A stretch of 64,000 nt of DNA from Opitutales bacterium (GCA_965226885.1 CBDDEL010000017.1:224001-288000), one strand, 5' to 3'; positions 37,135 to 64,000 are shown, numbered from the stretch's first letter. Notes: a model not told the origin generated them from the letters alone. Made by a program: numbers and translations.

Positions 37135-38030
37135 ATGAGCAAAGACACGCATAAGAAGAAAGTTTTGATAACTGGCACATCAGGCTTGGTTGGCGGGGCA
37201 GTCTGGAACTGGATGGCCGGTTTTCCCGATAGGTACGATCTTTATGCGCTGGACCGGAGTGAGCACCAGTCGGACCGTACCATAGATGCCTCGCGGCCGG
37301 AAATTCCAGAGGGCCGGTTTTTTCGGACCGATATTTCAGATATTGAAGCGGTCAAACGGGTTATGCGTGGAATGGATGCTGTAGCGCACTTGGCAGCCGA
37401 TCCTAGACCACACGCTCCATGGGAGGTTCTTTTGAAGAGCAATATCATTGGCGTGTATAATATTTTAGAGGCGGGGCGGGAATGCGGCGTCAAGCGCGTT
37501 GTGTTCGCGAGTTCGATCATGGTTTCGTCCGGTTACCGGAAATCGGAGCCGTATTGTTCCTACAAGGAAGGCGTTTATGGTGATGCGTCGGGACCGTTTC
37601 CTTATCTCAGAGCAGATGCTCCCTCGCGGCCGGACACCATCCCGAGGCCCTATGCGAGCACCAAGCTCTGGGGCGAAGCACTTGCCCTGTAAACCGCGTA
37701 GACTGCTGCGTTCCTGATAGACTCGAAGGATCATTTCTTTTTGCTCTTCGGTGTATTTCACCGGTATATGGTTCGGAAGCTTACGGGATGTCGGCGATGT
37801 GTATACGGATCGGGAGTGTAACCGCGGCCAACACACCTATAGGCCGCAACAAAGACGTGTGGTGCAGCTTCCGCGATATCGGACAATTGTTTCAATGCTG
37901 TATCGAAGCTCCTGATACGGTCAAATTCGATGTTTTTTACAGCATATCTAACAGCCGTTACGGCTGGGTGGATATCGAACACGCTCGCAAGACCGTGGGT
38001 TATCAACCTCAAGATACAGTTGAAATTTGA
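37135..38030 (+). pseudogene. NAD-dependent epimerase/dehydratase interrupted by a 75-bp IS1 fragment
   Basis: ITGTSGLVG, HLAA and YASTK motifs in the 5' part; CIRIG and ARKTVGYQPQD in the 3' part; insert at 37687-37761. Confidence 0.85.
37687..37761 (-). mobile_element. internal IS1 fragment without ends
   Basis: Exact reverse complement of 21985-22059. Confidence 0.9.
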
Positions 38031-38731: not shown

Positions 38732-40298
38732 CCCGGATATTTCATGAAGGGTAAAGTTTGGCTCGTTATTGCTATTGGAGATGGATTTCTTTGTATTTTG
38801 AGCAGATCGTCTTGATTTTTAGGTGTTTTTCAGGGTGTAGAGACACTGCCCCCTTTCCCCCATTGGTTCGGTAGTGCCGGGGGCAGCACCAATGCACCCT
38901 TTAGGTTGGCACCAATCGGCGGGCCGCATGGTTGAAAAGACTGGCCCAAGGATAACTCTCACTTAGGTGAAAGTGAATCGTTCGGGTGTTGCGCACGATG
39001 ACCGCTCCGATCTTGATTAATTTGAGCCGCAGGGTGTGGCATTGGGCCCGCGCCCACTTCGTCCCTTTTAAGGCTAACCGGCGCATGGCTTCCATCAAGG
39101 TGTAGGCCAGCGCCGACAAGAGCAATCGGCACTGATTGGCCCACCATTGATGGGCGCTGGTGCGCTCGCTGAACAATTGCATCTGTTCCTTGATTCGGTT
39201 CTCCATTTCACCGCGGCCACAGTATACCTTGTCGTAAAGCTCCTGGGGATCGCCCGGCAGGTTCGTCACCACGAAGCGCGGGTTGGACCCCTGTGCGGTG
39301 TGTTCGGCTTTATGGATGACCAACCGCAGCCATCGCCACGAATCGGCAGCATAGACGAAGTCCTGGAATAACCGTTGTTTTTTACCCCTTAGTTCGAACC
39401 ATTCTTTGGCCTGCTTTTGCAACTGCTGGGCGTCTTGCTGCAAGCGTGCATTGCGAGCCATCCCCACGATGTAACTAACTTCGTTGCGGTCGCACCAAGA
39501 GAGTATCCGGTCTCGACAAAATCCACTGTCGGCGCGCCAAATAATCCGCGTACGGGGCCAGCTTTGGCGAATCCGTTTAACCAGCAATTTGAGGATGGCC
39601 CCGGCATGCTTGCTGGCATCGATCTTGCTCGGCCGCAGGTAGGCCACCAGCAGCTGATCACCGCAAAAAACATATAGCGGCAGAAAACAGTAATGATCAT
39701 AATAACCGTGGAAAAAACGTCCCTCCTGGAGCCCGTGCACCGGATTGTCGGTGCCGTCAAAGTCCAGGATGATCTCTTCGGGTTCCTCGGCAAAGGAGCC
39801 CATGAACTGTTCGACCAACAGCTCGTTTACCGCAAAGGCCGCCCGCCGATCCTGCCCGTTTTCAAAACGACACAAAGTCGGCGCGCTGGCCAACGTTTCA
39901 ATGCGCCCCGTTACCGTTTGCAACAATGGATCGTGGCGCAGGGTATCAAAGTCGTTCAAATCCTCATAGCCCGCCACCAGCCCGTAAACGCGCTGCCGCA
40001 GCATCCCCAAGACCTCATGGCGTACTTTGCCCTTCTGCCGTTTGTCCACTAACTGTCGGGCCGCTCGTTCGGTCAAGCCCAACTGCCGATCCACTTCCCG
40101 GATCAAAAGCAGTCCGGCATCCGAAGTAACCTCTCCGCCCTTGAAATCAACCCCCACACGGCGGCCTTTTACCCTTGTCAACTGTAGCTTTAATTGTTTA
40201 CCTTTTGTCATCGCTGATATTGCTTTAATTATTGATCTATCCTGCTGTATATCAGCAGTTAAGCATATCAACGATACTTTTTTTACGAAATATCCGGG
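38732..40298 (-). mobile_element. IS1380-family element, copy 2
   Basis: IRs CCCGGATATTTC/GAAATATCCGGG with CTAG TSD (38728-38731 and 40299-40302). Confidence 0.95.
38901..40211 (-). CDS. IS1380-family transposase
   Basis: Full-length homolog of 7725-9035. Confidence 0.93.
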   Translation of the reverse strand: MTKGKQLKLQLTRVKGRRVGVDFKGGEVTSDAGLLLIREVDRQLGLTERAARQLVDKRQKGKVRHEVLGMLRQRVYGLVAGYEDLNDFDTLRHDPLLQTVTGRIETLASAPTLCRFENGQDRRAAFAVNELLVEQFMGSFAEEPEEIILDFDGTDNPVHGLQEGRFFHGYYDHYCFLPLYVFCGDQLLVAYLRPSKIDASKHAGAILKLLVKRIRQSWPRTRIIWRADSGFCRDRILSWCDRNEVSYIVGMARNARLQQDAQQLQKQAKEWFELRGKKQRLFQDFVYAADSWRWLRLVIHKAEHTAQGSNPRFVVTNLPGDPQELYDKVYCGRGEMENRIKEQMQLFSERTSAHQWWANQCRLLLSALAYTLMEAMRRLALKGTKWARAQCHTLRLKLIKIGAVIVRNTRTIHFHLSESYPWASLFNHAARRLVPT

Positions 40299-40977: not shown

Positions 40978-42096
40978 ATGATCATAATTAATATTAAGAC
41001 CACATTGTTGGTAAACGCTTGTTTCATTCTATTAACCTCAAGCATTTATGCGAAGGGACAGGAGATGTGGCACAAGGGTAATACTCATGCCCATACCACA
41101 CTTAGCGGGCACGCTGATTCGAGTCCTGAGGCAGTTGCTAAATGGTACCACGACCACGGATACAATTTTCTTATTCTGAGCGAACATAATATCTTTATCG
41201 ATCCATCTACGGTGAAACCGCCAAAAAACGCGCGGGAAGACTTTATCCTCATACCGGGTGAAGAAATTACCGGGCATCTGCGTGTCCATAGCACAGCGAT
41301 TAATATACCCAAACTTATCGATTGGACATTCCAGAGCGAGAGCGTGGCCGCTGTTATCCAAAACCATTTGGATAATACCAAGGCGTTGGGTGGGGAGCAT
41401 ATTCTCAATCATCCAACCTACCGCTATGCTGTCACTGCCGAAGATATGAAACAAGTCAAGGGTTTGCACTTGTTCGAGCTGCACAATGGGCACCCCAATA
41501 CCTATCGACACACCCATGAAGTGGATGAAGGGTATGTAACCACCGAAGACATGTGGGATGATATGCTGACTTCCGGCCTTGTCGTCTATGGGGTTTCCTC
41601 GGACGACACTCATACGCTAAAGGAATGGGAAACCGAGGCGAGCAATCCCGGTCGAGGCTGGATAATGGTTCGATCCAGGAGTTTGACGCCAGAGAGTATC
41701 ACAAAAGATATACGAGCCGGAAATTTCTATGCCACCAGCGGTGTCATTCTCAGTCGAGTCGATGCATCGGAAGATACCTATTCTGTCGAGGTGGATCGCA
41801 GTGCCACTATGGAGGAATTAAATTCTCCCTATAACCTGGGGCGAAAGCTTCCCGATGCCACGGGTGGATTCTTGATCGAGTTCATCGGTCCCACCGGATA
41901 TGTCGTCAAACACATTCATGGGACAAAAGGAACCTTTCGTATTCGACCGGAAAATGCCTACATCCGTTGCCGGGTTACCTACACACGACGTGCAACCCAT
42001 GGGTTTGAACAGTTTTTTGCCTGGACACAGCCTGCTTTTACGGACGACCGGTTGGCCAGAACGCAGGCCGAGGACCACGATTATTTTGGCGAGTAA
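40978..42096 (+). CDS. secreted PHP-domain (CehA/McbA-like) metallohydrolase
   Basis: Signal peptide, KGNTHAHT, LSEHN, GEE, NHP and SDDTH metal-ligand motifs. Confidence 0.85.
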   Translation: MIIINIKTTLLVNACFILLTSSIYAKGQEMWHKGNTHAHTTLSGHADSSPEAVAKWYHDHGYNFLILSEHNIFIDPSTVKPPKNAREDFILIPGEEITGHLRVHSTAINIPKLIDWTFQSESVAAVIQNHLDNTKALGGEHILNHPTYRYAVTAEDMKQVKGLHLFELHNGHPNTYRHTHEVDEGYVTTEDMWDDMLTSGLVVYGVSSDDTHTLKEWETEASNPGRGWIMVRSRSLTPESITKDIRAGNFYATSGVILSRVDASEDTYSVEVDRSATMEELNSPYNLGRKLPDATGGFLIEFIGPTGYVVKHIHGTKGTFRIRPENAYIRCRVTYTRRATHGFEQFFAWTQPAFTDDRLARTQAEDHDYFGE

Positions 42097-42125: not shown

Positions 42126-42189
42126 TTGACAGGGGCAGGAATTGGATAATATATTCTAAAAAGTTACTTAATATGGATAATATATCCAT
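42126..42189 (+). promoter_or_regulatory. sigma70 promoter with overlapping repeated operator-like palindromes
   Basis: TTGACA (42126) N18 TATATT (42150). ATGGATA-ata-TATCCAT at 42173-42189, with a degenerate copy TGGATAATATATTCTA at 42143. Confidence 0.6.
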
Positions 42190-42221
42190 TCTGCATTCGA
42201 GAAATATTTCTTAACAAAGCG

Positions 42222-43124
42222 ATGAACAGGATTCCCGCCCCGGACACTCTGATGCCCCTACCTGAAACGGCATTGGAGGATAAGGCAATACCGCTGCAAG
42301 AATATTCCTTTCCGCTTCGTTTCAGCATCTTGCGCAACTCCCTCACCGAGGCTGAAAGAAAAGTGGGTGATTACTTCCTTAAAAACCCGAAGGCCGCCTA
42401 CCTATCCATAACAGAGGTAGCGCAGGACAGTTCCTTGGGCTATGGTAGCATCATCCGGTTTTGCCGCAAAATCGGGTGCACGGGGTTCCAGGATTTCAAG
42501 GTCCTGTTAGCTCAGGAATTGACTGCTTTCCAGCAAGCATCGAAAGGGAAAGATTCGGATTTGATCTTCGATTACGGGGAAAAAATTAAAACTGATTTAT
42601 TGAACACGATTCAGTTGCTGGACCGGAATGTCCTGCAAAAGATTGCCCGCTTGCTCAGCCAAACCCGATTCGTTCTCATTTCGGGAGTAGCCGGATCCGC
42701 TGCTTTGGGCCACGGCTTAAACTATCGCCTGAGCCGGGTGGGAATCTGTTCAACGGTGGATTGTGAAGGCTACACCATGGCGATCCGGGCAGCCGCCCTG
42801 GAACCGTGGGACATCTTCTTTGCTATTAGTTTTTCCGGTGCGACAAAAGATTTGCTCAGTTCTGTTGAAATCGCGAAAGAACGGGGCGCAAAAATCATTG
42901 CATTAACTAATTTTATCCAGTCGCCGCTGGTAGATTTAGCTGATTACAGCCTCTTTGGGGCCACCGACCGCGATCCCTTTTCCTGCGAGGTATTCTCCAA
43001 TGTGACGAGAGATTTTGTGCTCGATCTTCTTTTTGTTCAAATATGTGAAACCCATCCTCAAGCCCATGAAACAATACAGCGAACTTTCGAAGCGATTTCC
43101 GGGCGGCGCGGCGCATTTGAATAA
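42222..43124 (+). CDS. RpiR/MurR-family transcriptional regulator (HTH + SIS)
   Basis: LTEAERKVGDY, SIIRFCRKIGCTGFQDFK and ISFSGAT motifs. Confidence 0.93.
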   Translation: MNRIPAPDTLMPLPETALEDKAIPLQEYSFPLRFSILRNSLTEAERKVGDYFLKNPKAAYLSITEVAQDSSLGYGSIIRFCRKIGCTGFQDFKVLLAQELTAFQQASKGKDSDLIFDYGEKIKTDLLNTIQLLDRNVLQKIARLLSQTRFVLISGVAGSAALGHGLNYRLSRVGICSTVDCEGYTMAIRAAALEPWDIFFAISFSGATKDLLSSVEIAKERGAKIIALTNFIQSPLVDLADYSLFGATDRDPFSCEVFSNVTRDFVLDLLFVQICETHPQAHETIQRTFEAISGRRGAFE

Positions 43125-43138
43125 TTGTTTACAAAAAC

Positions 43139-44401
43139 ATGGCGAAAAGTATATCCAATCACCCAAAACCCGGTTTCCGGGCGGCCCAATGGAGAGTTCT
43201 CCTGGCCACCATGTTTTGTTACCTCTTCTATTATACGGGCCGCCAGACTTTGGGGTTCGCCATCCCGGGCATCGAGGCCGAACTCGGATTGAGTAAAAAA
43301 GAGATCGGCTGGATGATAACGGGGCTATTGTGGGCTTATGCCATGGGGCAGGCAGTCAACGGTAATCTGGGAGACAAATTTGGGGGCCGCCGGATGATGA
43401 GTCTCGGTGCCGTGCTCTCCTGTGGTTTTAATTGGATGGTCAGCTTTGGAACAAGTTTTACCGGTCTGTTAATGCCCTGGGTCGCCAATGGTTTTTCCCA
43501 ATCCATGGGATGGGCGCCGGGCAGCAGGGTTTTATCAAACTGGTGGGGCCACCATGAACGAGGGAAAGCCTTCGGGTTTTATGTTTTTGCCGCCGGCATG
43601 TCCTCGGTCCTGGCTTTTGTATCCTCCCTCATTATCCTTGATGTTTTATCCCTCAACTGGAGATGGATTTTTCGCCTTCCCGTTCTCCTCCTTCTGGTGG
43701 GGGGGCTGGCTTACTATTTAATCGTCCGCGACCGCCCGGAAGATCTTGGGTTCCAGTTGGATGAGGACGATGCAAACCATGGGCAAGGCGAGGAGAAAGT
43801 GGCCGTCGGCGAGACTTCCCTCCAACGCTACATGGCCGTGTTGAGCAATTGGCGATTTATGATAGCCAGCATTGGAATCGGGTTTCAGAGCTCCGCCCGG
43901 TATGGATTGATCTATTGGGTGCCGGTACATTTTTTAGGGGCCGATTGGAAAAATTCCGACGCCAAGTGGATCAGTATAGCCTTGCCCGTGGGAATGGCCC
44001 TCGGTGCCCTTACCGGGGGATGGGTATCCGATCGGGTATTTAATTCTGTGCGCTGGAAACTCTACTCTACATTCCTGATCCTGGCCGCGGTAGCTTCCTT
44101 TGCCATGTTCTTCATTCCACGTGACCATTGGGCAGGTATCCTGTTCCTGTTTTTCTGTGGGTTTTTTGCCTACGGATCGCAAGCCGGATTCTGGCCCCTG
44201 GCACCGGATTTACTGGGCTCAAAACGGGCCGGAACAGGCGTGGGAGTAATGAATTTTTTTGCCTACCTATTTGCCGGCCTGGTCAACCCCCTGATCGGGT
44301 GGGTGATCATCTCGAATAATGAAAATACCGCCCTCGTTTTTCCCATAGTGGGCGTAGCTTGTGTGGCCGGCGCAATAACCGGATTATTTGTCAGACGTTA
44401 A
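43139..44401 (+). CDS. MFS transporter, organophosphate:Pi antiporter (GlpT/UhpC)-like
   Basis: CYLFYYTGR, QSMGW, WW...ERG, RDRPEDLG and GWVSDR motifs. Confidence 0.85.
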   Translation: MAKSISNHPKPGFRAAQWRVLLATMFCYLFYYTGRQTLGFAIPGIEAELGLSKKEIGWMITGLLWAYAMGQAVNGNLGDKFGGRRMMSLGAVLSCGFNWMVSFGTSFTGLLMPWVANGFSQSMGWAPGSRVLSNWWGHHERGKAFGFYVFAAGMSSVLAFVSSLIILDVLSLNWRWIFRLPVLLLLVGGLAYYLIVRDRPEDLGFQLDEDDANHGQGEEKVAVGETSLQRYMAVLSNWRFMIASIGIGFQSSARYGLIYWVPVHFLGADWKNSDAKWISIALPVGMALGALTGGWVSDRVFNSVRWKLYSTFLILAAVASFAMFFIPRDHWAGILFLFFCGFFAYGSQAGFWPLAPDLLGSKRAGTGVGVMNFFAYLFAGLVNPLIGWVIISNNENTALVFPIVGVACVAGAITGLFVRR

Positions 44402-44433
44402 GAGAATTGGAGAAGGGAGAGAGTGCAAATGCT

Positions 44434-45360
44434 ATGAACGAAATAAAACAGAATAATAAAAAGAAAAATCGGGAGCCGATTCTAAAACGGAAGACCGCGA
44501 TTTCCTACAAAACGGAGGAAAAAACGGTCTTGCGCGGTTATAATTTAAGCGACCTGGCGGAAGAAGGTTATTCCTTTTGCGACGCCATGTATGTTTTATT
44601 CCAAGGCAGGATTCCAACCGAACCGGAGGAAAAAATGCTCAAATACGAGATGGGTGAATTCATGGAACACTCCATGTCGCCCTCGGCGGCTTCGGCCATA
44701 GCCGTTACCGCTGGCCGGCCCAACCTGCCTGCTGCCGTAGCTGCCGCCGTTATGACATTCGGCAGCGCCCACGGTCCCGGGGCGGCCCATGGATACATGA
44801 TGAACATCTACCTGGAGCGTGCCCGCAAAGAGGGAAAGTCCCTTGATGAAATGGCCAAAATTCTGGTCGATGAATACATGGATAACAATGTGCCCGTAAT
44901 GGGCATGGGCCAGCCGCAGCATCGCGACGGAGATCCTCGGGCCGAACCCACCCACCTCAAACAGGAAGAATTGGAGATCGACGGCCTCTACCTCGAATTT
45001 CAGCGGGCGATTGAAAAACACTTTCACGCCAGGAGAAAAAAAGAAAATCGCTCCTATGTGCCGGTCAACTGTGTGGGAGCGGGCAATACGGCCCTCTGCG
45101 ACATCGGGTTTGCCCCCAACGCGGCTTGGTGCATCGGCAGCGTGGTGCGTGGCTATAGTTGCGCCGCCCACGCCGTTTACACCTTGAAAAAAGGCCGGGC
45201 CTGGGCGGCCTCCAGAAATGAGCCCATGGTGCAGATGCTGGACCTTTCCATGATTAATTATATTGGCCCGGCAGATCGTCCGGTACCGACTCAGGAAGAA
45301 CGGCAAGAATATGCCAAAAAACAAAAAGAAGACGGAGAGTATAAAAAATGGGTAATTTAA
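44434..45360 (+). CDS. citrate synthase/citryl-CoA lyase-fold protein A with atypical active site
   Basis: TAIS..LRGY.L.DL, EHS..PS, HGPG, GMGQPQH..DPR, NCVG and R..AAH align to the CS/CCL scaffold. Confidence 0.8.
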   Translation: MNEIKQNNKKKNREPILKRKTAISYKTEEKTVLRGYNLSDLAEEGYSFCDAMYVLFQGRIPTEPEEKMLKYEMGEFMEHSMSPSAASAIAVTAGRPNLPAAVAAAVMTFGSAHGPGAAHGYMMNIYLERARKEGKSLDEMAKILVDEYMDNNVPVMGMGQPQHRDGDPRAEPTHLKQEELEIDGLYLEFQRAIEKHFHARRKKENRSYVPVNCVGAGNTALCDIGFAPNAAWCIGSVVRGYSCAAHAVYTLKKGRAWAASRNEPMVQMLDLSMINYIGPADRPVPTQEERQEYAKKQKEDGEYKKWVI

Positions 45361-46382
45361 ATGAGAAAAAAATCGGCAATCTCTCGGACCCGAAATTGCC
45401 CTATCCTTACATTGGCCGGGAATACGGCACGATTCCGCTGGACGCCTCCCGCCGACCCTTTCAATGGGTATCGGAAGTAGCCTATAAAAACATTCATCGC
45501 ATCGTTACAAGAGGATATGACACGACCGAACTGGTCGAGGAAGGCTATGGCGTAGTGGACATCCTCTTTGTCGATTTCCAGGCCAGGATTCCCACTCTTG
45601 AGGAAGAAAAAATGTTAAACTACATTATGATTCTTTCCCTCGAAGATGGTCTTTCCATGCCCGCCATCATGTCACGTCTGGTGGCCAAATCGAAAACCTT
45701 CCTGACTCAGGCTTGCGGCAGTGCCATCCTCGCTTTCGGTCATGCCTATGGGGCTTATTCGGCTTTCGGCGACATGCTCGGCGAATACCTGGCAAGGGCT
45801 CGAAAAGAGGATTTGTCCCTATCGCAGATGGCAGAAATTCTTGTGCGGGAACGACTGCCGGGTGAAATACTTGGAGTCTCCGACCTGATGCTGGAAGATC
45901 CCGCTGCCCAACGATTGCTGGCCAGAGCGGAAAAACTGGGAGTGGCCGGAGAGTCTATCGCCTTTCTCGGTGAAATCGCCAAATCCGCCCGGGAACAAGG
46001 AGAATCGCCCGTCGATGTGGACCTACTCGGGGCCATAGGTGCCACCATGATGGACCTTGGTTTTACTCCCGAAGCCACCTGGACGATTATCGCGGTGACA
46101 CGATCTTTTGGAGCTGGGGCTCATTTCATCGAGGAAATCGAGCGTGAGGACTTTAACCGTTTAGGTGAAACACTCACTCCCAAGGAGTTTTACGATGGTC
46201 CCGAGGACCGTCCCGTGCCGCCGCTGGCAGATCGCCACAAAACGGCCCAACCTGCCCAGACTCACACACTGGAGGACTGGAGGGAATCATTTGAGAAAAG
46301 AAAACAGCTTCCCGGAAGTGGATTCTCCATTGTGGAAGAAATTGAAGATCCGACCAAAAAAGGAGTTAAAGAGAAACGATGA
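45348..46382 (+). CDS. citrate synthase/citryl-CoA lyase-fold protein B, degenerate motifs
   Basis: W.SEV..IVTRGY..EL, RIPT.EEEKML, LGFTPE and RSFGAGAHFIEE scaffold; overlaps gene A. Confidence 0.75.
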   Translation: MGNLNEKKIGNLSDPKLPYPYIGREYGTIPLDASRRPFQWVSEVAYKNIHRIVTRGYDTTELVEEGYGVVDILFVDFQARIPTLEEEKMLNYIMILSLEDGLSMPAIMSRLVAKSKTFLTQACGSAILAFGHAYGAYSAFGDMLGEYLARARKEDLSLSQMAEILVRERLPGEILGVSDLMLEDPAAQRLLARAEKLGVAGESIAFLGEIAKSAREQGESPVDVDLLGAIGATMMDLGFTPEATWTIIAVTRSFGAGAHFIEEIEREDFNRLGETLTPKEFYDGPEDRPVPPLADRHKTAQPAQTHTLEDWRESFEKRKQLPGSGFSIVEEIEDPTKKGVKEKR

Positions 46383-47770
46383 GAGGCAATATTGATGAAA
46401 TGTATGCCAGAGCCCGCCAAGCTTTTCGGGAGGTCGAATACTGGCCTCAGGAAAAAGTCGATGAAATGGTGGCGGCGGCCGGTTGGGAATGGCAAAAGGA
46501 AGAAAACCGAAAAACATTGGCCAAACTCGCGGTGGAGGAATCCCGCGGTATCGGTATTTACGAGGACAAAGTAGCCAAGATTCGCACTAAAGTGTGCGGG
46601 ACCCTGCGAGACCAGCTGGGCGCAAAAACTTGCGGTTTGGTTAATGAGGATAAAACCAAAGGCCTGAAAACTTTCGCCAAACCTATGGGCGTGGTCGCCG
46701 TTGTCGTCCCTTGCACCAACCCGGAATCGACCGTTTGCTGTCTCGGCCTGAGCCTCTTGAAAACACGCAATGCCATGATCGTTTCCCCGCATCCCCGGAC
46801 GCCGCAAAGTACCTGGCAAACAGTGGAATACGGGAGAGCAGCGCTACGTAAAGTGGGCGCTCCAGAGGATCTGTTGCAATGCATTGAGCTACCCAGCCAC
46901 GAAATGACCCATGAATTGATGGCGCGATGCGATTTTGCGGTGGCCACGGGGGGAGCGGCTCTGGTCAGGGTCGTTTACGAGGCTGGCAGACCTTGCCACA
47001 CTGTTGGGGCCGGGAACGTCGTTTCGATTATTGATAAAACGGTCGATCTCAAAGATACGGCAGCCAAAATCGTTAAATCCAAAGCAGCCAATAATTCAGC
47101 CTCCTGTTCCTCTGAAAACGCCGTTGCCATTGAAGAGGTCGTTTACGATGAAATGATGGAGGCACTGCAAAAAGAAGGCTGTTATCTATGCACAGACGAA
47201 GAACGTGAAAGGCTGAGAAAGTATTACTGGCCCGACGGCCAAAATCTTAACCGGGAGGTGGTGGCCAAGCCGGCTTCCGTTATTGCCGAAAAAGTGGGTA
47301 TCGAAATCCCCCACGGCACACGGGTTATCATGGTCATAGGCATTAAACCAGGCCCCGAAGACCGTTTCTCCGGCGAAAAGATTTCCCCCCTTTTAACGGT
47401 ATGGAAATGGCAGGATTTTAAAGAAATAATAGAGCGGGTAAAAGAAATCCTCCGGTTTTCCGGAGAGGGACATTCCGTTTCGCTGCACAGCAAACTGGAA
47501 GAGCGTCAAGACGAACTGGCTACGCAAGTCAATGTCGGCCGGGTCATTTGCAACATGGGTCACACGGCCGGCAACAGCGGTGGATGGGCCAGCGGAATTG
47601 CCACCACAGATAGTCTTGGATGCGGTTCCTGGGCCGGTAACATGACCTCCGACAATATCGACTGGAGGCATTTCCTCAACTACACTTGGGTATCAATCCC
47701 CATTCCCGAACGCATCCCGACAGATGAGGAGTTGTTCGGCCAATATCTGAAAAAATGGGAATCCGATTAG
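46379..47770 (+). CDS. CoA-acylating aldehyde dehydrogenase, SauS-like
   Basis: PCTNP, SPHP, ATGG, VGAGN, SCSSEN (catalytic Cys) and LGCGSWAGN..SDN motifs. Confidence 0.85.
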   Translation: MRGNIDEMYARARQAFREVEYWPQEKVDEMVAAAGWEWQKEENRKTLAKLAVEESRGIGIYEDKVAKIRTKVCGTLRDQLGAKTCGLVNEDKTKGLKTFAKPMGVVAVVVPCTNPESTVCCLGLSLLKTRNAMIVSPHPRTPQSTWQTVEYGRAALRKVGAPEDLLQCIELPSHEMTHELMARCDFAVATGGAALVRVVYEAGRPCHTVGAGNVVSIIDKTVDLKDTAAKIVKSKAANNSASCSSENAVAIEEVVYDEMMEALQKEGCYLCTDEERERLRKYYWPDGQNLNREVVAKPASVIAEKVGIEIPHGTRVIMVIGIKPGPEDRFSGEKISPLLTVWKWQDFKEIIERVKEILRFSGEGHSVSLHSKLEERQDELATQVNVGRVICNMGHTAGNSGGWASGIATTDSLGCGSWAGNMTSDNIDWRHFLNYTWVSIPIPERIPTDEELFGQYLKKWESD

Positions 47771-47776: not shown

Positions 47777-50047
47777 TTAATCGTAAAAGATAACGGTGGA
47801 ATCGGAATAGCGAAAGAAAGCTCGTCTTTCGGCCGGTTTGTCAAAAAAGAACATCCAACCCTGATCGTCAAAAAAGTAGAGAATTGGATATAATGAGCGA
47901 TTGGTGTAAATCCAGATTCCAATGACCGGATCGTATAAAAAAATATTTTCGCGGTCGGATAGCGGCGAGATGTAAGTGAACTTATGTTGCGGGTGATAAA
48001 TCCAGGGTTGGAAGCTGGTGTTGTAATCGCCGAACCAGGGGGACTGGAACCAATCCTCCAGCTCTAAAATGGGATTGCAGGCGCCTCCCAGCGGGATGAT
48101 ATCTTCGCGAAGGACCGCCTCACCTCCAATGATCGTCACTTTGTCGAATCCAAGAATTTCGTTGCCCGCGCCAGAGGTTGCTTTCAGGACGATTCGCAGT
48201 TGCAGCGTATTTCCGGTAGCGTTGACCAGGAATGACAATTTGCTAAACATATTGCCAATAGGGGTTTCCTCAGGAGAAATCAAGGGGCCATTTTCGACGC
48301 TGGATTGAAGACGCCCGATCTCCTCAAAGGGTCCATTGTCGATGCTCGCCTGGATTGCCATTTTGTCTCCGTTTGACATCGAGTTGTCGAAGCCGCCGGG
48401 ATCGGAAGCGGCCACCAGGAGGGTTACCTCAATGCCGGTAAGACCCGTGATCGGGAGCGGGTCAAAAACCACTGCGCCCATGCCTGAAAAGCCAAGCAAA
48501 GCATCTCCATCATCAAATCCGGTATAGCCCCCCTGTCCGTCGATATTTTCGGCCGAAAAATACCAGTCCCCGTCAGGGCTGGCAAAATTGCCATCCGCCG
48601 AAGAGCGATGAAAATAGGCATTGAAGCGCGTGATTGCCGCACCCATAATGTTGTAGCGAGTTCCATCGCCATCAGTCTCGAAAGATTCTTCGAGAAGCAC
48701 AACCGGCAACCCTGAAACACTGATTTGCCGGGAACTAGACGTGGTAGGCGCAAATACCTCATTACCCGTTTGTTCGGCCAGCAGATTAGTCGAACCCGTG
48801 CCGACAATCGTCAGCGTTGAGCCCGATACGGTGGCCACATCGGGATTTGAACTACTGTAGGTAATGGGCAATCCGGTTAGATTTCCCCTCATTTTGAGAT
48901 CCGCAATAAAGGCATGGTGGTCGGAAATATAGGATGTCGCCTGCTGCTCGGGATATCGATTCGCACCCGCCGCAATGCTGGGATGCGGTGATGGCATGGT
49001 CGTCGATGGGTCATCCTGGGCATGATATACCTCCACTCCGGTGGCGATAAACTCACTGTTTTCATGGACGACCCAGTCGATCCTTTTAGAGGACTCCCCG
49101 AAGACGTTTTGGCGGGTATGCAGTGAATCTGGTCCAGGCCCGAAACCGAGCCTGGGAACCACCCCGGAACTGACTGCCGAATCCATCAACCCGATATCCC
49201 AGAGCGGTTGGAGTTGCAGGGTGCCATCCGGCATCTTGTGCTGCGGTTCAACATTGAGATCGCCAATCAGGATAACCGGATTGTTGGCAGCGGCGAGGGC
49301 CGGAGCGGCATTGAGTTCACTGTATTGAATAGACCCATCGGCTGGTTCAGGAAGATCGACATCGAAATGGGCGGTAAAAACATCTATGGTTCGAGAACTG
49401 TTGGTCAAAGTCGTTTTAATCATCGACTTGATATCGCTGCCAAGACTTGTGGAATGGATGGAGGGATCGCCCACCAGAGTCCACGGAGAGCGGTAAAAGG
49501 TGGCCACCCCCCACCAGTCTCCCCCGGAGGAACCCGTTAAACCAATATTATGGGTCCAGAATTGATAGTCCCAGACATCCTCGCTCTCAAGATTGTTGAG
49601 TGTGGTTTTTATGATTTCCGACTGCTCTGAATCCCTTCTGCCAACGCGCCCGTCATTGACGGTTTTTTGCCCGCCGATCACCTCCTGAAGACCAAATATA
49701 TCCAGGTTTTGTTGAAAAATACGTTCCGCGATTTCAGGTATAATAAGCGGCCATAATTCCGGCTCAGTGTATTGGGTGGAAATGCCTCCCGAAGTGGTGG
49801 CGGCATACCCGCCGATACCGGTATGGATGTTGAAACTCATGACCCTGATGGCGTCCCCTTCGAAATCAAAACTTTCTGCTTCGAGTTCAATATCCTCGTC
49901 ATCGATGCAAAACCGCAAGGGCGGCTCAAAAATCACGGTTTGGGGTTTTTGTGAAAGGGCCAATGGGGCGGTAATTATTAAGAAAAGAAACGCCACACCA
50001 TAGGTATAAGCATTAGCATTTATACATTTATTTAAGAATAGAGTCAT
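47777..50047 (-). CDS. secreted endonuclease/exonuclease/phosphatase (EEP) domain protein with Ig-like and aromatic C-terminal domains
   Basis: VMSFNI, GLQEV, GDLN, RIDWV and SDH motifs; C-terminal WFQSPWFG..PWIYH. Confidence 0.85.
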   Translation of the reverse strand: MTLFLNKCINANAYTYGVAFLFLIITAPLALSQKPQTVIFEPPLRFCIDDEDIELEAESFDFEGDAIRVMSFNIHTGIGGYAATTSGGISTQYTEPELWPLIIPEIAERIFQQNLDIFGLQEVIGGQKTVNDGRVGRRDSEQSEIIKTTLNNLESEDVWDYQFWTHNIGLTGSSGGDWWGVATFYRSPWTLVGDPSIHSTSLGSDIKSMIKTTLTNSSRTIDVFTAHFDVDLPEPADGSIQYSELNAAPALAAANNPVILIGDLNVEPQHKMPDGTLQLQPLWDIGLMDSAVSSGVVPRLGFGPGPDSLHTRQNVFGESSKRIDWVVHENSEFIATGVEVYHAQDDPSTTMPSPHPSIAAGANRYPEQQATSYISDHHAFIADLKMRGNLTGLPITYSSSNPDVATVSGSTLTIVGTGSTNLLAEQTGNEVFAPTTSSSRQISVSGLPVVLLEESFETDGDGTRYNIMGAAITRFNAYFHRSSADGNFASPDGDWYFSAENIDGQGGYTGFDDGDALLGFSGMGAVVFDPLPITGLTGIEVTLLVAASDPGGFDNSMSNGDKMAIQASIDNGPFEEIGRLQSSVENGPLISPEETPIGNMFSKLSFLVNATGNTLQLRIVLKATSGAGNEILGFDKVTIIGGEAVLREDIIPLGGACNPILELEDWFQSPWFGDYNTSFQPWIYHPQHKFTYISPLSDRENIFLYDPVIGIWIYTNRSLYPILYFFDDQGWMFFFDKPAERRAFFRYSDSTVIFYD

Positions 50048-50345
50048 GACAAATTGAATCAGTTTGATCAAGGAAGGTATTTTCGGATGACAGAGTACCA
50101 TACCTTATACCCCATCCCATTTAAGTGCAAACCCTCCGCAGTAAGATCCTTACGTAGCGAACCACTATCATCTTTAAAATGTGGAACCAAATCGACCCAG
50201 TTAACACCTGAAGTATCAGCAAGAGCCGCCAGTTCTGTATTTAATTGATCAATGGTGCCATTATTTCGAGAACCCCAGGTTGAAATGGACGGGGAAAACT
50301 GGACAGTGGAATAAGGTGGTCTTGAACCACTAAATCCGCTAACCT

Positions 50346-50651
50346 ATGAATGTTATTAAATCACGAAAGAGAAGACAATACAGTGCTGAGTTTAAAGCCC
50401 GAGTGGCCCTGGAAGCCATCAGGGGCGCTCATACCATCAACGAGATCGCCGGTCGTTTTGAGGTGCATCCCAACCAGGTGACCCAATGGAAGAAGCAGCT
50501 TTTGCAGGGAGCAACGGAGCTGTTTTCGCGCCAGCGGCAGACTCTCAGCAAGGACAACGAGACGGAAAAAGATCACCTTTACCAGGAGATTGGAAAGCTG
50601 AAAGTAGAATGCGATTGGCTAAAAAAAAAGTCTGAACAATTCGGTTGGTGA
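50346..50651 (+). CDS. IS3 transposase OrfA
   Basis: RRQYSAEFKARVALEA and WLKKKS slippery A-run. Confidence 0.9.
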   Translation: MNVIKSRKRRQYSAEFKARVALEAIRGAHTINEIAGRFEVHPNQVTQWKKQLLQGATELFSRQRQTLSKDNETEKDHLYQEIGKLKVECDWLKKKSEQFGW

Positions 50652-50661
50652 GAGGCGCAAG

Positions 50662-51525
50662 ATGGTGCAACCACTTCAAGGAAAAATCAGTATCGGCAGG
50701 CAATGTCAGTTGCTGGGGCTGGCCCGCGGCAGCTATTACTATCGGGCCCGTGCCCAGTGCGAGCAGAACGTTCTCTACATGCATCGCATGGATGAGCTCT
50801 ACACCCAATATCCGTTTTTTGGTTCTCGCCGGATGACCCAGTGGCTGCGTCGAGAGGGCCATGCAGTGGGACGAGGCCGCATCCAGCGGCTCATGCGCCA
50901 AATGGGCCTGGAGGCTATTTATCCGCGTCGAAACTTGAGCCAGGGGCACCGGCAGCACCGCATTTTCCCTTATCTGCTGCGGGGTTTGGCGGTCGAGCGG
51001 CCCGACCAGGTATGGTGCAGCGACATCACTTACCTGCGGCTGAGCCGAGGATTCCTTTTCTTGACCGTGGTGTTGGACTGGTTCAGCCGCTACGTGTTGA
51101 GCTGGCAGCTTTCCAACACCCTGGAGAGCCGCTTCTGTGTGCTCGCCCTGGAGGAAGCTCTGAGGCGGGCCCAACCTCAAATCTTCAACACCGATCAAGG
51201 CAGCCAGTTTACCGGCAGCGAGTTCACCTCGGTGCTGGGGCAAGCCGGGGTGCGCATCAGCATGGACGGGCGTGGCCGCTACCTGGACAACATATTTGTT
51301 GAACGCTTTTGGAGAACCCTCAAGTATGAAGACATTTACCTGCGCGAATACGCCACGGCAAAGGAAGCCAGCGAAGGGATAGCCCGCTACCTGGACTTCT
51401 ACAACCACCTGCGCCCCCACCAAGCCCTGGGCTACCGGACCCCGGCCGAAGTCCATGCAATCGGAGCAAAACCAACCTCCCCGCCAATACAGCTTGCGGG
51501 CACCTGCGTGCCCGTCTTTGGCTAA
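50662..51525 (+). CDS. IS3 transposase OrfB
   Basis: WCSDITY, NTDQGSQFT and DNIFVERFWRTLKYE motifs. Confidence 0.93.
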   Translation: MVQPLQGKISIGRQCQLLGLARGSYYYRARAQCEQNVLYMHRMDELYTQYPFFGSRRMTQWLRREGHAVGRGRIQRLMRQMGLEAIYPRRNLSQGHRQHRIFPYLLRGLAVERPDQVWCSDITYLRLSRGFLFLTVVLDWFSRYVLSWQLSNTLESRFCVLALEEALRRAQPQIFNTDQGSQFTGSEFTSVLGQAGVRISMDGRGRYLDNIFVERFWRTLKYEDIYLREYATAKEASEGIARYLDFYNHLRPHQALGYRTPAEVHAIGAKPTSPPIQLAGTCVPVFG

Positions 51526-52103
51526 GGACAAAATATATTTTTAAAAAATAATATGAACACGATTTCCACCTTAATCCCACGTCAAAATTGTCCAAACAAC
51601 CCCGTCCACTTCAGGTATCATCCCAAACCGGTAGCACGCTCTGTAGGTAAACCTTCGTCTGAGGACTCTTTTTCTTAATAAATTCGAGGATTTCCCCTAT
51701 TTTATCCCGGACTTCAGTGACGGATTTTTCCCGGTCGAGGTCGTTGGTACCAATCATTAGAAAAACTATTGCCAGTTTGCCCTCGGTAACCTCTTCGATT
51801 CGTTTCATCACGCCCCAGGCAGTATCGCTGGAGATTCCACGGTTGGTTACCTGCTCCAATCCGGTCAATTCGCGCCATTCACAGCCATCGGTGATACTGT
51901 CCCCGAGAAAACATATTTCGCCTTCTGGATTGGGCAAACTTCGGAATAAAGAAACCCTGTGTTTCCAGTAACCCGAAAATTCTGTGATATTTTTCTGCCC
52001 AAATCCCGAATGGGAAATGAGAATCAGCAGTGTTATGGCCAACAGGTTGTACTTTAGTTTCATCATGGTTTAAAAAATTAATGGCGCATACCATAATTAC
52101 CTA

Positions 52104-52414: not shown

Positions 52415-53977
52415 CCCGGATATTTCATGAAGGGTAAAGTTTGGCTCGTTATTGCTATTGGAGATGGATTTCTTTGTATTTTGAGCAGATCGTCTTGATT
52501 TTTAGGTGTTTTTCAGGGTGTAGAGACACTGCCCCCTTTCCCCCATTGGTTCGGTAGTGCCGGGGGCAGCACCAATGCACCCTTTAGGTTGGCACCAATC
52601 GGCGGGCCGCATGGTTGAAAAGACTGGCCCAAGGATAACCACTTAGGTGAAAGTGAATCGTTCGGGTGTTGCGCACGATGACCGCTCCAATCTTGATTAA
52701 TTTGAGCCGCAGGGTGTGGCATTGGGCCCGCGCCCACTTCGTCCCTTTTAAGGCTAACCGGCGCATGGCTTCCATCAAGGTGTAGGCCAGCGCCGACAAG
52801 AGCAATCGCCACTGATTGGCCCACCATTGATGGGCGCTGGTGCGCTCGCTGAACAATTGCATCTGTTCCTTGATTCGGTTCTCCATTTCACCGCGGCCAC
52901 AGTATACCTTGTCGTAAAGCTCCTGGGGATCGCCCGGCAGGTTCGTCACCACGAAGCGCGGGTTGGACCCCTGTGCGGTGTGTTCGGCTTTATGGATGAC
53001 CAACCGCAGCCATCGCCACGAATCGGCAGCATAGACGAAGTCCTGGAATAACCGTTGTTTTTTACCCCTTAGTTCGAACCATTCTTTGGCCTGCTTTTGC
53101 AACTGCTGGGCGTCTTGCTGCAAGCGTGCATTGCGAGCCATCCCCACGATGTAACTAACTTCGTTGCGGTCGCACCAAGAGAGTATCCGGTCTCGACAAA
53201 ATCCACTGTCGGCGCGCCAAATAATCCGCGTACGGGGCCAGCTTTAGCGAATCCGTTTAACCAGCAATTTGAGGATGGCCCCGGCATGCTTGCTGGCATC
53301 GATCTTGCTCGGCCGCAGGTAGGCCACCAGCAGCTGATCACCGCAAAAAACATATAGCGGCAGAAAACAGTAATGATCATAATAACCGTGGAAAAAACGT
53401 CCCTCCTGGAGCCCGTGCACCGGATTGTCGGTGGCGTCAAAGTCCAGGATGATCTCTTCGGGTTCCTCGGCAAAGGAGCCCATGAACTGTTCGACCAACA
53501 GCTCGTTTACCGCAAAGGCCGCCCGCCGATCCTGCCCGTTTTCAAAACGACACAAAGTCGGCGCGCTGGCCAACGTTTCAATGCGCCCGTTACCGTTTGC
53601 AACAATGGATCGTGGCGCAGGGTATCAAAGTCGTTCAAATCCTCATAGCCCGCCACCAGCCCGTAAACGCGCTGCCGCAGCATCCCCAATACCTCATGGC
53701 GTACTTTGCCCTTCTGCCGTTTGTCCACTAACTGTCGGGCCGCTCGTTCGGTCAAGCCCAACTGCCGATCCACTTCCCGGATCAAAAGCAGTCCGGCATC
53801 CGAAGTAACCTCTCCGCCCTTGAAATCAACCCGCACACGGCGGCCTTTTACCCTTGTCAACTGTAGCTTTAATTGTTTACCTTTTGTCATCGCTGATATT
53901 GCTTTAATTATTGATCTATCCTGCTGTATATCAGCAGTTAAGCATATCAACGATACTTTTTTTACGAAATATCCGGG
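52415..53977 (-). mobile_element. IS1380-family element, copy 3 (transposase pseudogene)
   Basis: Near-identical to copy 2. It has a -1 frameshift near 53586, a TAA nonsense at 53244-53246 and a 3-bp deletion near 52640. Flanks CTAA/TTAG do not match. Confidence 0.93.
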
Positions 53978-54902: not shown

Positions 54903-55200
54903 GATCTTATGGTCTTAATGATCTTGGTGATGGTATTGGATAGCACAACGCACTCATTATCAACGACAAAAATAATTGGCATCTTTCAGAATTCAAATCC
55001 TTCCTTATTTATCGTAAATAGCTCCTAAACATCCCTCAAAAGCAATTACTAAGGAAATCCAGGCGTTATTAAAGGTCAACTGCTTTGCCTGAGCCGCATG
55101 AAAAAATTGCGGCGATTTTATTCGTCACTAAAAATACCTGGCATTGGGAATGAAATAATACCTTTTATCGATGGTTGCTTGTCTGAAATACGAGATTTAC

Positions 55201-55953: not shown

Positions 55954-56051
55954 GAGATTAATTCTTCTCCTTGCAAAGGAAACATGATAAGGTTTTTTAT
56001 TCCAGATCATTGCGGCTCTCAATCAGTCGGAGCCGCTTTTATTTTTAAAAG

Positions 56052-56117
56052 ACCAGAGCCAGAAAACATCTACCAGAGCCAGAAAACATTTATGTCAATG
56101 AAATTATGTCAATGAAA
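56052..56117. repeat. two adjacent short direct duplications in a divergent intergenic region
   Basis: ACCAGAGCCAGAAAACAT x2 (2-bp spacer), then TTATGTCAATGAAA x2. Confidence 0.9.
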
Positions 56118-59362: not shown

Positions 59363-59522
59363 TAAAATATGGGCCACTCTGCGGTAACTCTGGACAGGGG
59401 TATTATAATACCTCAAACATGGCAGGCTTTACTTTAGGCGAGCGCCAATGGTATTATAAAATATTGCTGACGACTATTTTTAAAATCGATATTCGGATAA
59501 TTTTCAGAAATTCAAAGACGCT

Positions 59523-62962: not shown

Positions 62963-63166
62963 GCTTCGATTCTCCATTTAGGAGAATCTCGTGTCCACTT
63001 TTTCCAGTGCACATCACTAAGCCGATTGACAGTCCGCAATAAAGGTAGGAGGTATTTACAAGAATCTAATTTTTTATGAAAAACAAAGGAACTTGAAAAT
63101 ATTCAATCTCAAGGCGATCCAGCATAGAGATTCGATAGTTCCTTGACACACTGGAGAAAAACCTTG

Positions 63167-64000
63167 ATGGCGAAAAAAACAGGAAATGCAATTTTTTTTA
63201 TGGGCGTGGGGAAACCGCTCGAAGACCGGGAATATCCGCTTCCGGACGAACTGGAACCGGGCGCCATCCTGGTAAAAACGAACATTGCCACGGTTTGCGG
63301 CTCCGATATGCACAGCTGGCAAGGGCGGCGGCCCTTCCCCACCCCTTCAGTCCTGGGGCATGAAGGGGTGGGGACGGTCATGCAGATGGGAAACGGCGAG
63401 GAAAGAGACTCTGCCGGGAGTCCTCTTAAAGAAGGCGATCGCATTACCTGGACGATTATGGCGGTCTGCGGGGAATGTGTTTTCTGCCGAGAATACGGGC
63501 TGCCGCAAAAATGCCTGCATCTCTTCAAATACGGGCATTCCGTCAGTGATGTTCCGCCCTATTTCCTGGGAACCTTCGGTCAATACGTCTACCTGAAACC
63601 GGGAACCGGAGTCTTTAAACTACCCAATGATTTACCGGATGAAACGGCTTCGCCCCTGATGTGCGCGGCGGCCACAGTGGCTGGCGGCCTCGATAGGATC
63701 GGCCTGAATCCGGGGGACAGTGTGGTGATTCAGGGTGCTGGCATGTTGGGTTTGTATGCGGCTGCCTTTGCCACCGCCCTGGGAGCGCGGCAGGTTATCA
63801 TGATCGATATCATGGACAAACGACTGGAGGAGACCAAGCGCTTTGGGGCGAATCATATTCTCAATGCAGAAAAGATGCCGCAGGAAGAACTGATTGAAGC
63901 CGTTAAGGAACTGACGGGTGGATTGGGCGCGGATTTAGCGATAGAGGTCACCGGGTTTGCCCCGGTGGTGGAAACAGGGGTCAAAATGTTGCGCATCGGC
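63167..64000 (+). CDS. zinc-dependent alcohol dehydrogenase (MDR), runs off window end
   Basis: Manual translation: MAKKTGNAIFF...VCGSDMH...LGHEG...CGECVFC..GLPQKC...QGAGMLG. Not in the ORF track. Confidence 0.9.
   Translation, partial: MAKKTGNAIFFMGVGKPLEDREYPLPDELEPGAILVKTNIATVCGSDMHSWQGRRPFPTPSVLGHEGVGTVMQMGNGEERDSAGSPLKEGDRITWTIMAVCGECVFCREYGLPQKCLHLFKYGHSVSDVPPYFLGTFGQYVYLKPGTGVFKLPNDLPDETASPLMCAAATVAGGLDRIGLNPGDSVVIQGAGMLGLYAAAFATALGARQVIMIDIMDKRLEETKRFGANHILNAEKMPQEELIEAVKELTGGLGADLAIEVTGFAPVVETGVKMLRIG

Follow-up and report, generated by a model that had tools for sequence, protein, structure and literature searches.

A conserved cassette of Asp-less citryl-CoA-lyase-fold proteins and a CoA-acylating aldehyde dehydrogenase in an Opitutales bacterium: a proposed CoA-dependent end of phosphonate catabolism

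The operon described in the present work occupies positions 42126..47770 of a 64,000-nucleotide stretch of DNA from an Opitutales bacterium; this whole stretch is referred to as the window, and coordinates are positions within it. The operon consists of five genes which lie head to tail on the plus strand and which, on reading of their open reading frames (ORFs), contain zero internal stops: a regulator, a carrier of the major facilitator superfamily (MFS), two proteins of the citrate synthase superfamily, denoted A and B, and an aldehyde dehydrogenase (ALDH). The close packing of five intact genes and the overlaps at the A/B and B/ALDH junctions, which had been pointed out in a first-pass annotation made from the sequence, are borne out. 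The features of the operon are the following.

42126..42155, plus strand: candidate sigma-70-like promoter, TTGACA-18-TATATT, which agrees with the consensus at 11/12 positions and is a consensus match only; it lies ahead of the RpiR gene, and the operon as delimited here starts with it.
42222..43124, plus strand: regulator of the RpiR/MurR family (Pfam HTH_6 62.2 bits and SIS 48.2 bits, both above cut-off).
43139..44401, plus strand: MFS carrier of the organophosphate:phosphate-antiporter (OPA) type (MFS_1 168.7 bits; best NCBIfam model TIGR00881).
44434..45360, plus strand: protein A, an Asp-less protein of the citryl-CoA-lyase fold, with an ATG start; an alternative open TTG start lies at 44359.
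45348..46382, plus strand: protein B, a degenerate paralogue of A, which overlaps A by 13 nt.
46379..47770, plus strand: CoA-acylating ALDH, which overlaps B by 4 nt.

Both A and B belong to the citrate synthase superfamily, since they match the C-terminal half of the Pfam model Citrate_synt (PF00285) with 66.5 and 34.2 bits respectively (cut-off 27). The best model for the two proteins is that of the citryl-CoA-lyase subfamily, NF004869 (the PRK06224 group), but the scores of 121.9 bits for A and 94.2 bits for B are below its cut-off of 212, so that neither protein can be assigned to the subfamily. The best solved relative of A is the citryl-CoA lyase of Hydrogenobacter thermophilus (Ccl, 6hxp; HMMER, E 2.6e-21), which is also matched by B (E 9e-12). 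When an AlphaFold2 (AF2) model of A, with a predicted local distance difference test score (pLDDT) of 87.5, is compared with solved structures by Foldseek, 6hxp is again the top match (TMt 0.82, E 5.5e-12), followed by the citryl-CoA lyase (CCL) modules of ATP-citrate lyases and then by citrate synthases.

The motifs that carry the catalytic residues of this fold are altered in both proteins. In the HMMER alignment of A to 6hxp, IDHG is replaced by MEHS, SAHGGA by SAHGPGAAHG, GYGHR by GMGQP and NVDG by NCVG, so that A keeps the first two histidines (those of EHS and AHG) and has lost the third histidine and the aspartate; it also retains DPR and RG, at positions aligned with the thioester- and carboxylate-binding sites of citrate synthase. 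The motifs of B are LEDG, HAYG, DPAA and DLLG, with no histidine at the third site, and all four catalytic motifs are lost. Alignment to 6hxp thus confirms both the changes that the first-pass annotation had listed for A and the near-total loss of motifs that it had described for B. If the catalytic triad of citrate synthase is, as we assume, His274, His320 and Asp375 in the numbering of the pig enzyme, then in the same presumed numbering His274 is kept in A, and glutamine and valine stand at the positions of His320 and Asp375. By sequence alignment A therefore has one of the three triad residues, the histidine of AHG, and B has none. An ordinary citrate synthase or citryl-CoA lyase identity for the pair, for which the canonical His/His/Asp triad would have to be intact, was considered and is ruled out by the incompleteness of the triad.

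The ALDH is a member of the CoA-acylating group (AdhE N-terminal/EutE/SucD). Its best NCBIfam model is SauS (NF047625), but the score of 488.3 bits is below the cut-off of 600, so that membership of the SauS family itself is not indicated; the AdhE N-terminal model gives 372.7 bits, the EutE-type model 305.3 bits and Pfam Aldedh 76.7 bits. The nearest solved structure is an acetylating succinate-semialdehyde dehydrogenase (8cei, E 5.3e-86, residues 4-454). The sequence contains the motifs VPCTNPES and ASCSSEN, and SCSSEN is invariant in 63 orthologues. Judged by the SauS model and the SucD structure, the enzyme is closest to those which make CoA esters from anionic aldehydes: SauS and SucD (8cei) are of the same ALDH subfamily, have the same SCSSEN cysteine motif, and are CoA-acylating enzymes of short anionic aldehydes. 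It differs from SauS in that it scores below the equivalog cut-off and in that its neighbours are phosphonate genes rather than sulfonate genes.

In order to evaluate whether these genes belong together, it is necessary to consider how they are arranged elsewhere. From 204 relatives found with A, 80 loci were kept; ORFs were called in these loci and clustered, representatives were annotated and then mapped back by tblastn, and 24 recurrent neighbour families were annotated. A query with P0126 alone found no related loci. B follows A in 77 of the 80 loci, and the three in which it is missing end at most 360 nt past A. The ALDH is present in 67 loci; of the 13 from which it is missing, 11 have at most 2645 nt after A, and two (L025 and L042) have room for it. 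The 13-nt overlap between the end of A and the start of B is seen in 52 of 62 loci. Pairwise identities in A, in B and in the ALDH are correlated with one another across 54 loci (Mantel r 0.77-0.82, p 0.001), which indicates that these genes move as a set. With the transaminase gene PhnW between B and the ALDH in some loci, the trio forms a fixed cassette, which recurs more than chance would allow. The conservation of the trio in other genomes, which the first-pass annotation had left to gene-neighbourhood analysis, is therefore established.

The cassette is also widely scattered. A is 77-94% identical in metagenome-assembled genomes (MAGs) titled Opitutales, Planctomycetota, Chloroflexota, Desulfobacterales, Paracoccaceae, Gammaproteobacteria, Spirochaetota and others, and 109 residues out of 308 do not vary among 77 sequences. 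The sole full-length match to A above 50% identity in a set of 1.84 billion cluster representatives is P0121 (64%), and the next full-length relatives are 35-43% identical. A occurs in 5 of 41 genomes of the order to which the window belongs, its own genome counted: in three of four other genomes of the same genus, in one of three of a second genus of the family, and in none of 32 from other families. This combination of high identity across phyla and patchy distribution among close kin points to horizontal spread.

The genes which surround the cassette are, to a large extent, those of phosphonate catabolism. At least one phosphonate marker gene is found in 57 of the 80 loci, and a gene for a phosphonoacetaldehyde-forming enzyme in 48. 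PhnW, of two types, is present in 38 loci, in 27 of which it lies between B and the ALDH, and the representatives of both types exceed their cut-offs (PhnW-AepZ 411.7 against 360.8 bits; PhnW 480.8 against 400.8). PbfA, at 50% identity or more, is present in six loci (representative 710.9, cut-off 525), PhnA in seven (479.1, cut-off 407.55), and PhnS2 and PhnU2 of the 2-aminoethylphosphonate (AEP) ABC system in eight each, with representatives of this system likewise above cut-off (PhnS2 451 against 392.75, PhnT2 501.5 against 457.7, PhnU2 713.3 against 593.25). An HpnZ-type zinc alcohol dehydrogenase (ADH) occurs in 14 loci; its representative carries an ADH_zinc_N domain and scores 310.3 bits, just below the cut-off of 328.1. 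A PhnD-type binding protein, whose representative does not exceed its cut-off, occurs in eight loci, a phn_DUF6 EamA membrane protein and a LysR regulator in 11 each (neither above cut-off), and a PHO4 phosphate carrier and PhoU_div, neither of which was scored against NCBIfam, in four and five respectively. No sulfonate-pathway family is found among the 24 annotated neighbour families, although no search was aimed at Xsc or SauT, and no phosphoenolpyruvate (PEP) mutase is found among the annotated families. PhnX is above its cut-off in none of six cassette-bearing genomes (the genome of the window and five others whose locus records are titled chromosomes), and PhnY in none of five (the same genome and four others). 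Because the feeder enzymes converge on phosphonoacetaldehyde, and the known consumers of this compound were not found in the genomes searched, the cassette itself is likely to carry out the next step. Of the substrates that the first-pass annotation had proposed, the phosphonate is thus supported by markers whose representatives exceed curated cut-offs, and the co-occurrence with phosphonate or sulfonate genes, which it had put forward as a check, comes out in favour of the former.

Two related gene arrangements bear on the division of labour between A and B and on the substrate which they share. Nine loci were found with the P0137 group, and in eight of these (L088-L094, L096) a single A-like gene is followed directly by an orthologous ALDH, with no B; loci of this single form are titled Syntrophaceae, Deltaproteobacteria and 'Candidatus Fervidifonticultor'. 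The single protein is 41-46% identical to A, and its ALDH is 62-65% identical to that of the cassette. A PbfA-like gene (68% identical) is present in L093 and L094, and genes of the ABC importer of AEP are present in L094. The signature common to the single form and A is MEH[SA]MSPS, AHGPGxxHG, GQPQH, DPR and NxVG or NxIG, that of A itself being MEHS / AHGPGAAHG / GQPQH / DPR / NxVG. The second arrangement contains P0155, a CCL-like protein which also lacks the aspartate, and with which 23 loci were found, in MAGs titled Armatimonadota, Bacillota, Rokuibacteriota, Actinomycetes and Spirochaetota. The CCL-like gene is directly preceded by CoA-transferase genes, that of subunit B in 19 of the 23 loci and that of subunit A in 17; downstream, 11 loci have a classical non-acylating ALDH, and PbfA (5), PhnS2 (5) and PhnW (2) are also present. 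An acylating ALDH on the one hand, and an ALDH combined with a CoA-transferase on the other, point to two independent ways to the same thioester, phosphonoacetyl-CoA, and both are found beside an Asp-less CCL protein of the same kind.

In a tree of 67 rows, for which midpoint rooting only was used, the Asp-less proteins are grouped in one clade (SH-like approximate likelihood ratio test, SH-aLRT, 99), from which the canonical CCL-like proteins of 260 aa are separate. Within it A and B are sister groups (SH-aLRT 91), the single-subunit form lies outside them (97), and the stem branch is longer in B (0.76) than in A (0.40). The existence of a single-gene variant that does without B supports the view of B as a scaffold left from a duplicated homodimer, and B is accordingly taken to be, probably, a degenerate, structural and non-catalytic partner of A.

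The remaining two genes of the operon encode the regulator and the carrier. Homologues of the regulator, which its HTH_6 and SIS domains place in the RpiR/MurR family, flank the cassette in nine of the 80 loci, and PhnW is present in none of these nine; it is likewise present in none of nine loci of the cupin-HTH type, and in nine of 11 loci of the LysR type. The carrier scores 176.1 bits with TIGR00881 (PgtP/OPA; cut-off 407.75) and 114.3 bits with GlpT (cut-off 632.55), and because the NCBIfam models that it matches best are those of organophosphate antiporters (PgtP/GlpT/UhpC), none of them with a score above cut-off, it is best described as OPA-like, without membership of a named subfamily. 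Its homologues occur in nine of the 80 cassette loci, in five of the nine together with the HpnZ-type ADH, and it is a candidate phosphonate importer. The remark of the first-pass annotation that OPA carriers exchange organophosphates for phosphate fits with the existence of AepP, an OPA-family AEP permease of Pseudomonas putida BIRD-1 (PMC8316502, in the part of that paper available). According to the same part of that source, AepP is, like the carrier of the window, a GlpT-related MFS protein and is found in phosphonate catabolic clusters, including some of Verrucomicrobia; this likeness is by family description only, and the two differ in that the variant in the window is without PhnW, so that the substrate of its carrier may not be AEP.

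Taken as a whole, the operon is probably the CoA-dependent end of a phosphonate catabolic pathway, in which phosphonoacetaldehyde would be converted to phosphonoacetyl-CoA and the latter, by way of A and B, to acetyl-CoA and phosphate. An anionic phosphonate would enter the cell by the OPA-type carrier, possibly in exchange for phosphate, and would then be converted to phosphonoacetaldehyde, in this genome most likely from 2-hydroxyethylphosphonate (HEP) by an ADH of the HpnZ/PbfG type, with the conversion of (R)-1-hydroxy-2-aminoethylphosphonate by PbfA as a second possible feed. The ALDH, proposed to be a CoA-acylating phosphonoacetaldehyde dehydrogenase, would oxidize the aldehyde with NAD(P)+ and CoA to phosphonoacetyl-CoA, and this thioester would be bound by an A/B heteromer in the way in which citryl-CoA is bound by citryl-CoA lyase. 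In A, which is proposed to be the catalytic subunit of a phosphonoacetyl-CoA C-P hydrolase, the retained histidine of AHG would polarize the thioester carbonyl, and the retained histidine of EHS and the arginines of DPR and RGY would hold the phosphonate; the corresponding positions are those which we take to hold the oxaloacetate carboxylates in citrate synthase. The acetyl-CoA enolate would leave, stabilized, and water would take the phosphoryl group, so that acetyl-CoA and phosphate would be produced. The RpiR protein likely senses a phosph(on)ate-bearing effector and would control the operon in response to it.

The residues that are missing from A make sense on this mechanism: the lost acid/base histidine serves the citryl hydroxyl, and would not be needed if the substrate is phosphonoacetyl-CoA, and an aspartate beside a dianionic phosphonate would be a hindrance. 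To our knowledge, all hydrolytic C-P cleavages use a carbonyl beta to the phosphorus, and the enolate of a thioester leaves far more readily than that of a carboxylate.

The source of the phosphonoacetaldehyde has to be considered separately for the genome of the window. We suggest tentatively, with rather less than even confidence, that the operon of the window is fed by HEP or a similar anionic phosphonate, on the grounds that this variant lacks PhnW, that a PbfG-type ADH oxidizes HEP, and that an OPA-family phosphonate carrier is known. PbfG, a pf00107 zinc dehydrogenase, converts HEP to phosphonoacetaldehyde, and its clusters, some of them in Planctomycetota and Verrucomicrobiota, lack phnW and contain phnX or phnY-phnA (Piazza et al., Protein Sci 2026, PMC13576164, as far as the available part of the article describes them). 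This PbfG/PhpC route resembles the present system in the kind of zinc ADH used and in the absence of phnW from the clusters, and differs from it in that the ADH is paired there with phnX or phnY-phnA and here with the A-B-ALDH cassette; a term search of the main text of the article gives zero occurrences of CoA, citrate and acylating. An ADH of this kind is encoded at the end of the window, as follows.

63143..64000, plus strand: 5' part of the gene of an HpnZ/PbfG-type zinc ADH, which ends at window position 64282, beyond the window (TIGR03366 312.8 bits, cut-off 328.1; L085:7143-8282).

This ADH is 43% identical to the cassette-linked ADH, and its likeness to PbfG is one of family description, not of sequence comparison with a characterized PbfG. 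PbfA (700.3 bits, cut-off 525) is encoded on another contig, C14. The best PhnX match in the genome scores 113.7 bits (cut-off 220), so that the PhnW-PhnX pathway is not recovered there, and the best PhnY match (TIGR03250) scores 283 bits (cut-off 635.65). A PhnW-like 3' remnant is present at G000:C17:457726-458175, and matches only residues 219-369 of canonical PhnW, with 37% identity.

The ADH at the end of the window forms part of a module which occurs twice in the genome and which consists of the HpnZ/PbfG-type ADH, a class II ketose-bisphosphate aldolase, a HAD protein of the beta-phosphoglucomutase (beta-PGM) type, an OPA-type MFS carrier and a 'PhnX-like' HAD protein (TIGR03351 168.7 bits, cut-off 218.9). 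One copy, at L085:7143-13300 (G000:C17:287143-293300), runs from window position 63143 onward; the other is at L087:809-9542 (G000:C14:497809-506542) and has a CehA-like hydrolase as an additional member. The PhnX-like gene of the C17 copy is in two fragments (model positions 1-119 and 109-202), which flank an overlapping ORF pair at L085:11966-12952, and the same unannotated overlapping pair adjoins an IS3-type ORF at window positions 50346-50651. Elsewhere on C14, L086:1270-4531 (G000:C14:479270-482531) contains a PhnF-like GntR regulator (201 bits, cut-off 156.8), a PhnM-like amidohydrolase and PbfA, followed by several ISNCY/IS5 transposases.

Several observations weigh against the assignment of the C-P cleavage to A and B, or against the proposed feed. 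No PhnW above cut-off is found in the genome of the window, the best PhnW-AepZ match having 157 bits (cut-off 360.8), and the ADH that might replace it lies at a distance of 15 kb downstream of the operon, across insertion sequence (IS) elements. PhnA (TIGR02335) is encoded 23 kb downstream of the operon with a score of 489.3 bits (cut-off 407.55), and the PhnA genes which adjoin seven of the 80 cassettes are not obviously needed if A and B release phosphate. B, when modelled alone, reaches a pLDDT of only 67.6, which is poor. Finally, in 50 of the 67 loci that have the ALDH, its gene is followed by that of a HAD hydrolase (for example L047:5515-6246), and this protein could be the real C-P-cleaving enzyme.

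If the cassette HAD were a divergent phosphonatase, it would form acetaldehyde and phosphate, the ALDH would be an acetylating acetaldehyde dehydrogenase, and A and B would have some other task involving acetyl-CoA; such a route and the proposed pathway would yield identical net products. The motif I of the HAD is FDFGQT, and in 39 of 44 sequences it has the form D-x-G, with glycine in place of the Asp+2 general acid, a residue which phosphonatase (D-x-A) presumably also lacks. The nearest solved relatives are uncharacterized HAD hydrolases and N-acylneuraminate-9-phosphatase, and the protein might be a real C-P hydrolase or might act on a phosphorylated intermediate. The phosphonatase explanation is nevertheless improbable, because no match between the HAD and the phosphonatase model is obtained at a threshold of E 1e-5, because it is missing from 12 loci with at least 1000 nt after the ALDH and from the genome of the window (tblastn E 1e-5), and because the ALDH scores higher with SauS (488.3) than with the acetaldehyde dehydrogenase models (372.7 and 305.3). 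It would, moreover, leave the most conserved protein, A, without a role and the CoA-transferase variant without an explanation.

We attach an equally low probability to the explanation that A and B act on phosphonoacetyl-CoA as a condensing or rearranging enzyme, by a Claisen-type addition or by a C-to-O phosphoryl shift followed by hydrolysis by the HAD, or that the cassette runs in the biosynthetic direction. The fold does perform Claisen chemistry, an enol phosphate or an acyl phosphate would be a suitable substrate for a HAD that lacks the general acid, and the PhnW-AepZ model covers biosynthetic transaminases as well. Condensation is, however, difficult to reconcile with the absence from A of the residues aligned with the condensation base and acid, and with the fact that no enzyme for a second substrate recurs. 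The neighbours, in turn, are catabolic (importers with binding proteins, PbfA, PhnA and phosphate carriers), with no PEP mutase among the annotated families.

Slightly less probable still is the explanation that A and B are a thioesterase, which would hydrolyse phosphonoacetyl-CoA to phosphonoacetate for subsequent cleavage by PhnA. Citrate synthase hydrolyses citryl-CoA in the second half of its reaction, and PhnA is available beside the cassette in seven of the 80 loci and at a distance in the genome of the window; but in the other 73 loci PhnA is not found nearby, and one non-acylating dehydrogenase would replace the three genes. In addition, the CoA-transferase found in 19 of the 23 loci just upstream of the CCL-like gene builds a thioester, which would be futile if the thioester were only hydrolysed. 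The sulfonate explanation, offered beside the phosphonate by the first-pass annotation, in which a SauS-like ALDH would convert sulfoacetaldehyde to sulfoacetyl-CoA and A/B would cut the C-S bond, is very unlikely, because the best model of the ALDH is indeed SauS but with a score (488.3) below 600, and because none of the 24 annotated neighbour families is a sulfonate family, Xsc and SauT not having been the aim of any search, whereas many are phosphonate equivalogs above cut-off.

The proposed phosphonoacetyl-CoA hydrolase can be compared with two groups of known systems. Citryl-CoA lyase (6hxp) and the CCL module of ATP-citrate lyase have the same fold and size as A, and the reaction of citryl-CoA lyase is formally parallel, in that the C2 group of an acetyl-CoA unit leaves and its enolate is stabilized. 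Citryl-CoA lyase differs in being the product of one gene rather than of an A/B pair, and the context of A/B consists of phosphonate genes rather than of citryl-CoA synthetase. The PhnW-PhnX and PhnW-PhnY-PhnA pathways have in common with the proposed one the entry enzymes PhnW and PbfA, the importers, the hub phosphonoacetaldehyde, and the logic of cutting the C-P bond beta to a carbonyl. They differ from it in that the aldehyde would here be oxidized to a CoA thioester and not to a free acid, and in that the carbon would stay as acetyl-CoA.

No description of a CoA-dependent phosphonate route was found in the literature searched, so that, within that literature, the pathway does not coincide with one already characterized. 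The term 'phosphonoacetyl-CoA' was found there only in the Flavophos preprint, as the predicted and not observed product of a biosynthetic BKACE. No paper that combines aminoethylphosphonate with citryl-CoA lyase was found, and titles and abstracts gave nothing relevant for phosphonate catabolism or phosphonoacetaldehyde in combination with citrate synthase, CoA or thioester. Term searches found no 'thioester', 'citrate' or 'acylating' in a 2023 review (PMC10574752), and no 'CoA' or 'citrate' in PMC12366243.

What would be new here is the cofactor logic and the enzyme family, while hydrolytic, carbonyl-assisted C-P cleavage downstream of phosphonoacetaldehyde is of a known kind. On balance we lean, if not strongly, towards the view that the Asp-less CCL clade, in its A/B, single A-like and CoA-transferase-linked forms, would be a new class of C-P-cleaving enzymes, the phosphonoacetyl-CoA hydrolases, coupled in the present operon to a phosphonate:phosphate antiporter and fed by HEP rather than by AEP. 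The only types of C-P-breaking enzyme that we know of are C-P lyase, phosphonatase, phosphonoacetate hydrolase, phosphonopyruvate hydrolase and the oxidative PhnZ type, and if the proposal is true, a thioester-dependent hydrolase built on the citrate synthase fold adds another. It would also explain how the pathway ends in those sediment anaerobes, Planctomycetota and Verrucomicrobiota which lack PhnX and PhnY but encode PhnW, PbfA or an ADH of the PbfG type. Phosphonate turnover would then be tied directly to acetyl-CoA, and hence to carbon and energy metabolism, and phosphonates would be sources of carbon and energy, not only of phosphorus, for anaerobes and polysaccharide degraders across many phyla.

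Some further genes recur near the cassette or lie near the operon. A DUF4886 protein recurs in Desulfobacterota-type cassettes, in seven of the 80 loci (L039, L049, L053, L060, L061, L070, L071), and a Janus/Ocnus-family protein recurs in cassettes of the same type, in nine (L041, L053, L059, L061, L067, L068, L071, L073, L074). In the window the operon is preceded by the following gene.

40978..42096, plus strand: CehA/McbA-like (PHP-type) metallohydrolase (NF038032 79.7 bits, cut-off 80).

The N-terminus of this protein is hydrophobic and resembles a signal peptide, as judged by eye, and its homologues adjoin the cassette in four of the 80 loci. It is possibly an accessory enzyme which frees the phosphonate, a role suggested by inference only. 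On the other side, at 47777-50101 on the minus strand and convergent with the operon, lies the gene of a 774-residue protein which combines an endonuclease/exonuclease/phosphatase domain (45.6 bits) with a long C-terminal region without a family match; L001 and L002, the two closest relatives, retain this gene.

The description of the window by the first-pass annotation as full of pseudogenes holds only in part: the window is rich in insertion sequences, one transposase copy is broken and a few genes are truncated, but the housekeeping genes are for the most part intact. Insertion sequences, which include IS21 IstB, the IS3 family and DDE_Tnp_1_4, are located at 187-954, 4053-5141, 7725-9035, 38901-40271, 50346-51525, 52584-53950 and 61752-62840, with a split DDE_Tnp_1_4 copy at 52584-53950. 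Beside IS elements lie truncated genes, among them those of an epimerase (37135-37692) and a GDSL lipase (51611-52066).

A set of glycerophosphodiester and glycerol-3-phosphate genes is located at 54087-60842. It comprises two genes of glycerophosphodiester phosphodiesterases (GDPD), at 54087-54902 (minus strand) and 56106-57020, and, between these, a MIP channel gene at 55201-56022 (minus strand), followed by a HAD-IIA gene at 58566-59285 and a GlpT-like carrier gene at 59523-60842 (471 bits, cut-off 632.55), and it is interrupted by an IS3-type transposase fragment at 57729-58448. Together with this set and with PhoD-like and PhnA genes, the operon makes up a phosphorus-acquisition island of approximately 30 kb.

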